Source: Eledone cirrhosa | Lineage: Eukaryota | Direction: 5' to 3' | Length of the DNA: 64,000 bases | NCBI GenBank assembly: GCA_964016885.1 | Contig: OZ024742.1 | Span: 57,350,001-57,414,000, forward strand | Shown: one piece after another, positions 2,803 to 6,102 of the stretch | Position numbering within the stretch: position 1 is the first letter of the stretch | Layout: each line of letters opens with the position of its first letter | The notes under the pieces: generated by a model | Databases searched by the model: none | What the model was told of the DNA's origin: nothing | The model's input: only the letters and a program-made list of their open reading frames with translations | Made by a program: the position numbers and the translations under genes

Positions 2803-2981
2803 AATATATATATATATATATATATAAGCAAGATGTATGGTAGGTCGTATGTGAATCGCGATGATCACGTCTGACCTACCAAATATGTGACGGTAGCTAG
2901 TTAAGCTCTATGCGTATAAGCAGAGCAGAAATATTAGTGAAAAAGAACAAAGGAACTATTATGACATTATAACAAGTTTAT

Positions 2982-3028
2982 TGCCGACAGCCGTTTCGTC
3001 CGACCTTATGGTGGGACTTTTCAAGGCA
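2982..3028 (-). ncRNA. Type I hammerhead ribozyme, U3-A8 variant (left arm)
   Basis: Reverse complement of 5859-5905. Confidence 0.7.
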
Positions 3029-3967
3029 TATAACATGTGATTGTAAGATCATTATTTACATCAACGTATCACTCAATTGAAATTGTGGTATACATCAGCA
3101 GCTCCGCTTGTATAGTTGGGGTCTATATTCTAAGGGGGCTCTTTTATATTAGTTGTCGGGGTCGGGGATTGAAGGTTAAAAATTAGATAATATATAATTA
3201 GATAATATATAATTTACGTATTACAAGTAAAAATTAAATTAAAAGACTTGGGATCTCGTAGAAGCACCTTAAAAAATCCCTCAATAAGTGCATAAAGCTT
3301 ACAGGCTCCAATAAACCTACTAGACTAGAAGAAATTAAGAGGCTAATAAAATTAAAAAAATAAAAATATAAAGTTTCCCTAAAAAATATAAAGTTTCCTA
3401 AGAAATTCCTTCGAGAGAAAAAATTGTTTTAGAAAGAAAAAAACTTTCTTCCCCCGAGATCACGTTAACAAATTTCAGAAAACTTACGAAGTTTTGATAT
3501 TCCCTACTAAGTTGAAAGAAACTAATCAATTAAAGGTTACTTCAAAGAGCCTTCAATAAATCTCTCAGAAAAGGCCCCTTTAATATTTTTAATTGGAACC
3601 TCCTCCGAGAGACCCTTCGAAGAATTAAAATTTTAGAGAGCCTTTAAGGATATATATAAACGAATTGAGGAAAATTACAAATTAAAAGTTAAAAATTACG
3701 GTATTTGGGATATCCGAGGAATTTTCAAAGGGCTGCTTCAACAGATACAACTTAGGCATAATAGATACAATAATTTAAGTAATTTAAGTAATTTAATTAG
3801 GGAGCAATTCAAAGAGCTTGTCAAGTTGGGCAAGATTAAAGAAAGTGGTAAGTAAGAAAATACATAAGCAAAAAGACAATAATTATAAAATGTATTTTTA
3901 AGAAGGTATAAGGTAGCTTCAGTAATCTAATAATGTACTATCAAAAAATTATTATAAAATTATTGAT

Positions 3968-4220
3968 ACAGGATTAACAAAGACATTATAATATATTCCT
4001 GCCTAATTAACAAGTAATCAATACACTATTAACAGTCAGGCAAAATTAGCTCAGGGATATCTCGCGCTCGGATACTTTACACACATACAGCAACAGATAG
4101 GATTAACACAGACATAATGGTATATTCCTGCCTAATTACCAAACAATCAATTAATTGATGGTCAAGAAAATGTACTCAGGGATATCCTGCGCACGGATAT
4201 TTACATACATACAGCAGGAT
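3968..4220 (+). repeat. Diverged ~128-bp tandem duplication
   Basis: aggattaaca..tatattcctgcctaatta..ctcagggatatc..cggata..catacagca occurs twice. Confidence 0.8.
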
Positions 4221-5858
4221 GAACAGTACAGGTGACCTTGTGGGCGCGATATCCATTATGCGTATGTAGTCATCTGCATAGCTCCAGGCACATTTGGTCT
4301 TGTTTAAAAGTTCATAGTTCACGGATCAACTGGGATTCACTATCAGCTGCGTGGACTCTCTGGGTAATGTACCTGTGGATCAAATAGCTAGTGGTTGCTG
4401 GGTGTGGTCCGTTCGATCTTTTAGTTTCGGGGGTTGCACGCGTTTGCGATAGATCAGCCTGCCGGTTCTAAATCCAAGGTCTCGCTGCATAGGATGTATT
4501 GGTCTACATGCTATATTGGTAAAAAAACCAGTGTGAATTTGACTGGGGTGGTATATTACGAACTCCAAGCCCACACGCGACTGGTCAAATGCGAAGGGCT
4601 GTCCCCTCTTTGTTTGCTGTATGGGTCGGTTCCAGCTTAGATGGTGGTCGTGTTATCCATATTCCGTCAGCCCTGTATATTCAAGACAGATCAGGGTATA
4701 TATTTGCGGGTATGGTCCGGCGTCTACGCTATCCAAAGGGTCTCTCTTGTGGTGTTTTCAAGTTCACATGTCATCTCCCGGTTAAGACTGCGCATGCTTC
4801 GGTGAATCTCATGCATGGAATCTTGGGGTATCATATTACACGGGGTGACTAGCAGAAAATATATATTCTATGCTATCGCGCACGCGCTGGCCTGTGGCTA
4901 CGACCGTGTCCAGTCTCGGGTAGTAGCAGACAGCTGGTAGACCAGCTAGACACACCCCTGTTCAAGGGGCACAACCCCTAACTTATCGAGTGGTCAGACA
5001 TCAAGTGAGTCAACTCACCAAGCCCATTAAGTCAACTGTGTTAAAATACAAAAAAATCCCTATTAATAAAGAACTAATCACTAATAATAAAGAAGAACTA
5101 ACTCAAAAGAAGTGAGTGGGGGAGAATGGGGAGGGGCATCTATTTGGGCGGGGGTTTACTAGGGGGGGTGATTGGTTATAGGCAGGAGCGGCCGCCATAT
5201 TGGGTGTTTTGTACTGTTTCCCTGGGCGCGTTCCCGAGTTTGTTGACATACATCTCCGACGGCACCCTCCCAGATTAGTCAACGTGGGTCCAGGCACTCA
5301 CAATGTCCTACATCGCAGGCATCAGCTTCCCCCAGGGTGCCCAGCAACAATGTTGCCACCAATCCCAAGTTGGCAAGTGGGACACAGGGTCGTCTGTTCC
5401 TCACCAGAGTCCCCATCGGCAATCGGGGAGCCGAGGCATCTATGCGGCCTGGGTTACTAAAGAGCACCCTGTTCGCCAGCCGGGCTGCCAAGTGCGGGGC
5501 AGGGTGGTGTCAGGGCTATGTGTCCGGTCTGAAGAAAAAGAAAGAGCTAAGTATAGTATGGGGGCAGGACGAGAAGATTTCTGATCTCCTGTTGAGCAAG
5601 TTGAGTCCTGAGAATACTATGGCTTCTACGAGATCCCAAGTCTTTTAATTTAATTTTTACTTGTAATACGTAAATTATATATTATCTAATTATATATTAT
5701 CTAATTTTTAACCTTCAATCCCTGACCCCGACAACTAATATAAAAGAGCCCCCTTAGAATATAGACCCCAACTATACAAGCGGAGCTGCTGATGTATACC
5801 ACAATTTCAATTGAGTGATACGTTGATGTAAATAATGATCTTACAATCACATGTTATA

Positions 5859-5905
5859 TGCCTTGAAAAGTCCCACCATAAGGTCGGACGAAACGGCTGT
5901 CGGCA
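5859..5905 (+). ncRNA. Type I hammerhead ribozyme, U3-A8 variant (right arm)
   Basis: tgcc-TTGAAAA-gtcc(c acc ataa ggt c)ggac-GAAA-cggctg-TC-ggca, followed by AATAAA. Confidence 0.72.
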
Positions 5906-5952
5906 ATAAACTTGTTATAATGTCATAATAGTTCCTTTGTTCTTTTTCACTA

Positions 5953-6102
5953 ATATATATATATATATATATATATATATATATATATATATATATATAT
6001 ATATATGTGTGTGTGTGTGTGTGTGTGTGTGTGTGTGTGTGTGTGTGTGTGTGTGTGTGTGTGTGTGTGTGTGTGTGTGTGTGTGTGTGTGTGTATATAT
6101 AT
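5953..6102. repeat. (TA)n/(TG)n compound microsatellite
   Basis: Read directly from the sequence. Confidence 0.95.

Follow-up and report, generated by a model that had tools for sequence, protein, structure and literature searches.

A 3.1-kb locus with inverted arms in the genome of Eledone cirrhosa is very probably a head-to-head pair of 5′-truncated copies of one Penelope-like element family

In a stretch of 64,000 nucleotides from Eledone cirrhosa (Eukaryota; NCBI GenBank assembly GCA_964016885.1, contig OZ024742.1, positions 57,350,001 to 57,414,000 of the forward strand; in the following the whole stretch is called the window and positions refer to it), the segment from 2827 to 5956 carries long inverted arms at both ends, which raises the question of what kind of mobile element it represents. 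A first-pass annotation, made from the letters of the window, had read it as a recently inserted, large non-autonomous parasite of Penelope-like elements (PLEs), or as PLE-carried cargo of unknown nature, without a reverse transcriptase (RT) of its own. According to our analysis, the segment very probably consists of two 5′-truncated copies of one autonomous PLE family, which lie head to head in a (TA)n tract and likely derive from one insertion event.

The structural part of the earlier description was largely reproduced. The arms, 335 nt each and 2,356 nt apart, match at 334 of 335 positions with the sole mismatch at 5723 (T vs C), and both contain an AATAAA. The nearest other copy in the genome is 99.2–99.4% identical to them, and most other copies are 88–94% identical. 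The extension reported as about 105 bp on one side is 104 nt long and present on the left side only; its 9-bp stem was confirmed, it folds at −26.4 kcal/mol (z = −2.73; matched by 2 of 200 shuffles), and at least 35 copies of it in the genome are 100% identical. Also, (TA)n flanks are present on both sides as claimed. For the interior, the statement that no RT or endonuclease motif can be recognised held in so far as none of the eight open reading frames (ORFs) tested gave a Pfam family above cut-off; it did not hold for the minus strand of 5519–5623, which encodes residues 829–863 of an intact 863-aa ORF found elsewhere in the genome (100% identity, tblastn), that is, the last 35 codons of an RT-endonuclease. 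The long copy thus comprises 2,797 bp on the minus strand, from 5623 to 2827, with these codons, the 3′ region and the 104-nt extension, in the following called the tail.

Every part of the element is repeated in the 3.0-Gb genome, with candidate numbers dropping from the outer left end inward: a first look gave 922 candidates for the tail, 1,214 for the arm (a number that includes insertions in which the arm occurs twice), and then 728 and 362 for the two successive stretches of 965 bp and 1,391 bp. The element was mapped onto about 60 loci, which are the best-scoring few dozen of hundreds and were picked by arm and tail queries. Copies begin only at element position 1 (with tail) or at position 105 (without tail), and from either start they extend inward over lengths between 71 bp and 2,797 bp or beyond, forming a series of 5′ truncations anchored at the 3′ end. 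Therefore, the element is a retroelement whose 3′ end lies at 2827 and which reads along the minus strand of the window. The survey of the flanks listed 82 ends, some of them from overlapping loci, with 56 distinct strings beside the 3′ ends: 42 TA runs (11 or 12 of 12 bases), 11 degenerate TA-rich strings and three others, one of which is a tandem junction. As identical pure (TA)n flanks collapse to one string, the flank count is a floor.

The inner boundary of the long copy at 5623 (element position 2797) decides whether the segment is a unit with termini of its own. The interior is colinear, at 93–96% identity, with the 3′ 2.8 kb of copies that extend into the ORF described below; for its non-coding part, identity to other copies is 91–96%. 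All 13 other copy rows that reach this position continue upstream, none of them turning into an inverted arm, and the sequence beyond it is conserved at 90–99% between those copies that cover the full 700 bp. Among the loci examined, no other long copy has the 335-bp inverted arm at the equivalent of 5623. The right arm is not a terminus of the family, since other long copies occur without it and inverted partners at different loci have lengths anywhere between 71 and 2,797 bp. The boundary lies inside an ORF, 35 codons before its stop, which fits random 5′ truncation.

An RT-coding family sharing the arm, which the first-pass annotation had proposed to look for, was found by walking upstream in other copies. 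The ORF lies directly upstream of the shared part and was found in the 10 kb taken from each of three continuing loci; it is intact from ATG to stop with 863 aa at one locus (L101:970-3561), and stop-free frames of 877–892 aa are present at five loci. The full unit has 5,360 bp and consists of a 79-nt leader, the 863-aa ORF and a stretch of 2,692 nt that extends from the stop codon to where the tail ends. The 3′ region has no sense frame of at least 100 aa in the 14 copy rows searched, two pairs of which are from the same locus.

A dedicated non-autonomous PLE parasite, or a PLE with unknown cargo, would be an RT-less unit of 3.1 kb that has inverted termini of its own and is mobilised in trans. 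Several observations are in line with such a unit: the Pfam-negative interior ORFs, a non-coding stretch of 2.6 kb, a length uncommon among PLEs, to which the 3′ region of a sister family shows no nucleotide similarity, and the existence of non-autonomous PLE derivatives in animals as described in a preprint (bioRxiv 10.64898/2026.07.22.740005). It is nevertheless very improbable, since all 13 copy rows at the inner boundary continue into the RT-endonuclease ORF, the boundary is located within this ORF with no arm there in any other long copy examined, and the partners are of variable length. Frames of 863–892 aa are intact, so the family does not lack an ORF as non-autonomous, retrozyme-like elements do. 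The interior is therefore the tail end of an ordinary PLE, colinear with copies that run into an intact ORF for RT and GIY-YIG-like endonuclease; the first-pass annotation had itself named an interior encoding an ordinary PLE protein as evidence against its proposal of a parasite or cargo, which we replace by that of two truncated copies.

The protein of the family has 139 homologues at E ≤ 0.001 (best 2e-129), with named relatives from a cephalopod, a bryozoan, a coral and a sea slug. In an alignment of 29 relatives, D259, Y353-R354-D355-D356, C722, C724, C730, Y743, Y756, G758, R767 and H771 are invariant. An AlphaFold model of the 863-aa ORF had a predicted local distance difference test score of 81.4 and a predicted template modelling score of 0.78, and in a Foldseek comparison with the PDB the ranks 1 to 4 were all taken by telomerase RTs (E 7.6e-9 to 3e-8). 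The predicted structure thus identifies the ORF product as a telomerase-like RT. Y743, Y756-x-G758, R767 and H771 are spaced as Y3, Y14-x-G16, R25 and H29 of Pfam-validated PLE endonucleases of the same genome, and a profile comparison by hhalign gave a probability of 70% (E 4.1e-5). Both results moderately support a putative GIY-YIG-like endonuclease fused to the RT at its C-terminus. None of the 30 top-scoring GIY-YIG loci in the genome has anything in common with the element; these loci belong to other PLE families. The family is probably undescribed as such, the insertion itself being of a known kind; its unusual traits are the 5.4-kb unit, the 2.6-kb non-coding 3′ region and the 104-nt tail.

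With regard to the genome as a whole, the first look with the Pfam GIY-YIG profile gave 10,596 candidates, with 150 of 150 scoring above cut-off, and the search with the family protein gave 90,033 first-look candidates. Penelope-like elements appear to make up a very large part of this genome.

The arrangement of the two copies was compared between loci. Including that of the window, 19 distinct head-to-head junctions at truncated 5′ ends were obtained, with gaps of −9 to +26 bp between the partners. Thirteen of them join one copy with tail and one without, one joins two tailed copies and none joins two tail-less copies, while in the remaining five the partner is cut by the edge of the locus or rearranged. 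Exactly one tail per pair is thus found in 13 of 14 resolvable pairs, among them the pair of the window, in which the long partner is tailed and the short partner tail-less. Direct arrangements were found as well. At locus L097, a partial copy of 1,490 bp has the tail at its end and passes directly into the 5′ start and the ORF of a full copy, forming a direct pseudo-LTR (pseudo-long terminal repeat). Direct arms at C4:116941843 and C4:116947224, 5.4 kb apart, enclose an intact ORF, and in tandem copies the tail is directly followed by the 5′ start of the element. PLE insertions are described as being 5′-truncated and as often having a partial tandem copy and an inverted 5′-truncated copy ahead of them (PMC8557442), and the published tail of 30–40 bp is located at one of the insertion's ends (PMC8557442). 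Truncation series, (TA)n target, pseudo-LTRs and one-tail pairs are this published insertion signature of PLEs, and the earlier recognition of inverted pseudo-LTRs with a one-sided extension as a sign of PLE integration agrees with the published descriptions.

The same pairs bear on the possibility that two independent insertions hit one (TA)n tract, the second adjoining the first by chance or by target preference. The strong preference for (TA)n makes repeated hits on one tract plausible. A single event is supported because the arms are identical at 334 of 335 positions, as against 88–94% identity for most other copies. Moreover, the truncated 5′ ends abut with a 2-nt overlap and with no (TA)n between them, and independent insertions would not be expected to follow a rule of one tail per pair, as seen in 13 of 14 resolvable pairs; we therefore regard them as a scarcely probable origin of the pair. 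It is known that complex PLE structures cause problems in assembly (PMC8557442), and the inverted arm could accordingly be an assembly artefact or the product of a later local inversion-duplication; with the same architecture at 18 further distinct junctions on many contigs, all within the gap range given above, this is very improbable. Finally, with its near-perfect 335-bp inverted repeats at both ends and its TA-rich flanks, the locus can be mistaken for a DNA transposon of the terminal inverted repeat (TIR) type, as was anticipated, or for a fold-back transposon or a DIRS-like element bounded by inverted terminal repeats. There is next to no probability for these readings. Other long copies mostly have a single arm, and partners are variable, in place of the fixed ends that characterise TIR transposons together with a constant target-site duplication. 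A truncation series anchored at the 3′ end is what target-primed reverse transcription typically leaves. Pfam gave neither a transposase nor a tyrosine recombinase in the eight interior ORFs and no recombinase domain among the 29 relatives, and no internal region is complementary to the extension as for DIRS (longest internal match 9 nt).

The features of the locus as read from two truncated copies are listed in Table 1. Within the AT-rich part of the non-coding 3′ region, the direct duplication of about 127 bp lies at 3970–4216, where 3970–4022 pairs with 4099–4151 (87%) and 4042–4077 with 4167–4202 (81%); other copies have it too.

Table 1. Features of the PLE locus at window positions 2804–6005 (strand "." = not assigned).
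Feature	Position	Strand	Remark
Left (TA)n flank, target microsatellite	2804–2826	.	Read directly; same flank type beside the 3′ ends of other copies
104-nt tail between the two alternative 3′ ends of the family; hairpin 2838–2846/2873–2881	2827–2930	−	
Left arm, the 335 nt of the long copy that directly precede its tail; hammerhead-like motif 2980–3029 (−), AATAAA 2977–2982 (−)	2931–3265	−	
Non-coding 3′ region of the long copy; AT-rich 3266–4230 (with internal duplication of ~127 bp), GC-rich 4231–5515	3266–5515	−	
RT/GIY-YIG ORF, last 35 codons and stop; 5623 is the 5′-truncation point of the long copy	5516–5623	−	
Head-to-head junction; bases GC common to both copies (microhomology)	5622–5623	.	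Coordinates of the two matches overlap by 1–2 bases
Inverted partner copy (right arm), 335 nt, 5′-truncated, without tail; hammerhead-like motif 5858–5907, predicted cleavage after 5901, AATAAA 5905–5910	5622–5956	+	
Right (TA)n flank, then (TG)n; TAT 5954–5956 may belong to element or target	5954–6005	.	

For the origin of such a pair, a mechanism can be proposed by analogy with PAc, a Poseidon PLE of Anolis carolinensis (Frangieh et al. 2024, PMC11167929). The purified PAc protein is reported to cut and extend both strands of AT-rich DNA (PMC11167929), and reverse transcription is described as starting from two internal sites of a multi-copy RNA, the tail being the stretch between them (PMC11167929). 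Accordingly worded for the family of the window, the endonuclease would cut both strands of the (TA)n target, and each free 3′ end would prime reverse transcription of the element RNA, one from each internal start site. Both cDNAs would end short of the 5′ end of the element and would be joined at 5622/5623 via the 2-nt microhomology. The putative hammerhead would process multimeric transcripts. In the tandem copy the start sites read cactaa/TATTTCTGC and cttgct/TATTTAGCT (the slash marks the site), both directly before TATTT, so that a TA primer could pair there with the UAUUU of the RNA.

The same pentamer TATTT follows both 3′ ends (L097 6480–6620; window 2927–2933 and 5951–5959), where 3 nt of pairing with a TA-ended primer would be possible.

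A hammerhead ribozyme had been annotated in each arm. Both arms do align along the full length of the type I hammerhead model RF00163; the score of 20.2 bits stays below the gathering score of 34, with an E-value of 0.23 when 3.8 kb were searched and of 0.0091 for a search of 151 nt, and at the gathering level Rfam gave no match anywhere in the whole window. We therefore speak of a hammerhead-like motif. Its core UUGAAAAG...CGAAAC departs from the consensus solely at positions 3 and 8 (U3/A8 for C3/G8) and is constant in 83 matched copy stretches, variation being found mostly at N7 and in loop II. Helix III is short (A-U and C-G around GGCU) and helix II has 4+3 bp with one mismatch. Judged from its letters, CGGCUG can pair with itself via G-U pairs as in dimeric PLE hammerheads. 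The U3-A8 core is an already known feature, as Schistosoma mansoni has been described to contain PLE hammerheads with this covariation, at about 1,300 hits (PMC4209133). An Rfam search by E-value over four loci (35 kb) gave no hammerhead and 142 microsatellite look-alikes of miRNA families. For PAc, insertion in vitro is reported not to have needed the ribozyme (PMC11167929).

Among known systems, the family agrees in its motifs with the Hydra clade as described for PLEs by Craig et al. (2021, PMC8557442), and the assignment to this clade rests on motifs. According to that description, Hydra elements encode a GIY-YIG-like endonuclease at the C-terminus of their one ORF, which has DKT instead of DKG (SDKTRNMY in the family of the window), a CxCX5C linker (CNCRKKDKC, with the invariant C722/C724/C730) and CxxC and CxH motifs near the C-terminus, with no CCHH pair in the GIY-YIG core. 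They likewise insert into (TA)n, and their type I hammerhead, located some 100 nt from the 3′ end, would have its counterpart in the hammerhead-like motif of the family; inverted 5′-truncated copies are on record, e.g. for Penelope-13_HM (PMC8557442). The preference for (TA)n is given for all listed Hydra families but one, for which the field is blank, and one of the families is from octopus (PMC8557442). Unlike the clade as described, the family has a non-coding stretch of 2.6 kb between stop codon and hammerhead-like motif, a U3-A8 core where all listed Hydra hammerheads have CUGANGA, and RWR where the clade has RWK (PMC8557442).

PAc resembles the family in two alternative RT start sites that delimit the tail, in a stem-loop at the start region, in an AT-rich target and in the place just upstream of the start sites of its hammerhead and of our hammerhead-like motif, and its cutting and extension of both strands would give inverted copies (PMC11167929). 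The differences, as far as described for PAc, lie in the tail of 30–40 bp with start sites within the ORF, as compared with 104 nt and a position 80 nt upstream of the ATG here, and in a start site without homology to the cut DNA, whereas the ends of our family lie directly before TATTT (PMC11167929). The two strands of PAc are moreover alike in their start site, whereas in 13 of 14 pairs of the family the two partners use one site each. The Cercyon PLEs of S. mansoni (Cervera and de la Pena 2014, PMC4209133) share the U3-A8 covariation of the core and a short helix III suited to dimers, and their hammerheads are located in PLE terminal repeats, also as opposed pairs on two strands; they belong to another host and another PLE clade, and helix II of our family is long in comparison (PMC4209133). 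Naiad PLEs (Craig et al. 2021, PMC8557442) have the preference for (TA)n and the high copy numbers in invertebrates in common with our family and form tandem and inverted insertions with a tail as well, but are described with an N-terminal endonuclease, a CxC motif and no canonical hammerhead, whereas the endonuclease is C-terminal here. Animal non-LTR retrozymes (Li et al. 2026, bioRxiv 10.64898/2026.07.22.740005) bear hammerheads and derive from PLE terminal repeats. They are described as short tandem units without ORF, in contrast to a family that encodes an RT-endonuclease, lost in the window copy by 5′ truncation.

Several points weigh against the interpretation as two copies of an autonomous, Hydra-like PLE that were inserted together. 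The loci examined were selected by score with arm and tail queries, and the counts obtained from them are no unbiased census. Inside a microsatellite, a target-site duplication cannot be read. The hammerhead-like motif has a non-consensus core in addition to its score below the gathering level. For the protein, Pfam gives neither RVT_1 nor GIY-YIG in the family ORF, GIY-YIG passes in one and RVT_1 in none of the 29 aligned relatives, and a profile search of PDB sequences gave just a retron RT (E 0.0076). With respect to the clade, the unit of 5.36 kb is about twice the size of any of the 29 Hydra families listed, which have 1.4–3.0 kb (PMC8557442); small unit size (generally below 3 kb), which our family exceeds, is a descriptive trait of the clade and not a defining one. 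The tail of 104 nt has three times the published length of 30–40 bp (PMC8557442). Priming on two strands in a single event is inferred from the anatomy of the loci together with in vitro data for another clade, and for this other clade, represented by PAc, no difference in start site between the strands was reported in vitro, while the pairs described here are asymmetric (PMC11167929).

A more far-reaching model can be offered as a tentative one, which we hold to be rather unlikely in its entirety. Every insertion would use both start sites once, one per strand, and the tail would be the footprint of an asymmetric two-polymerase complex. Unlike in PAc, the start sites would be set by pairing of the TA primer with UAUUU, and a Hydra-like lineage would have doubled its size via a fast-evolving non-coding region of 2.4–2.7 kb between ORF and ribozyme.

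A sister PLE family with 60% protein identity is present at three loci (L106–L108 = G000 C2:362469500-362479499, C14:23965000-23974999 and C4:6072500-6082499). Its unit has about 5.1 kb with a 327-bp direct pseudo-LTR (99.4% identical) and a frame of 815–919 aa. The 3′ region of 2.4 kb is of similar length to that of the window family and has no nucleotide similarity to it beyond the end of the ORF. A candidate hammerhead core in the sister pseudo-LTR, CUGAUGA...GAAA and then CAATAAAA, gave no Rfam match in a 301-nt search and was not used as evidence for covariation. A second Penelope-like fragment in the window, at about 46475–47500 (+) right after a short (TA)n, belongs to the sister family: 46487–46546 matches the last 20 residues of the ORF (tblastn), and 47140–47215 is closely like part of the 3′ region of the sister family.

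The ORF 5337..5648, which had been put forward as a candidate for interior coding capacity, is part of a frame at 5247–5648 (+) that is antisense to the element and gave no match to any family. With its 133 codons, this frame spans the end of the RT-endonuclease ORF, and its last 8 codons (25 bases) are located in the inverted arm, which exists at this place in the window copy only. In 8 of 17 other copies the antisense frame is stop-free over residues 1–126, and all three plus-strand frames are long there. We read the frame as an effect of inherited GC-rich composition.

Directly to the left of the locus, a stop-to-stop frame of 320 aa at 1945–2790 (−) contains a PHD finger (Pfam PF00628, E 4.5e-7), and its C-terminal part looks like the end of an RT of a long interspersed nuclear element (LINE). 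The PHD/LINE-like part stops where the (TA)n target of the PLE starts, the frame crossing the microsatellite into the tail by chance only.

The finding leaves the knowledge of PLEs as a class unchanged. For annotation it means that automatic tools would take a unit of 3.1 kb bounded by inverted ends of 335 bp for a TIR or fold-back transposon, when it is actually the footprint of a retroelement. It would extend the Hydra-type PLEs, to which the family would belong by its motifs, to elements of 5 kb and add a further lineage with a putative U3-A8 hammerhead core. As its two sharp 3′ ends are separated by 104 nt and occur once each in a pair, and as there is only one target motif, the family provides a clean natural data set for the poorly understood integration step of PLEs.

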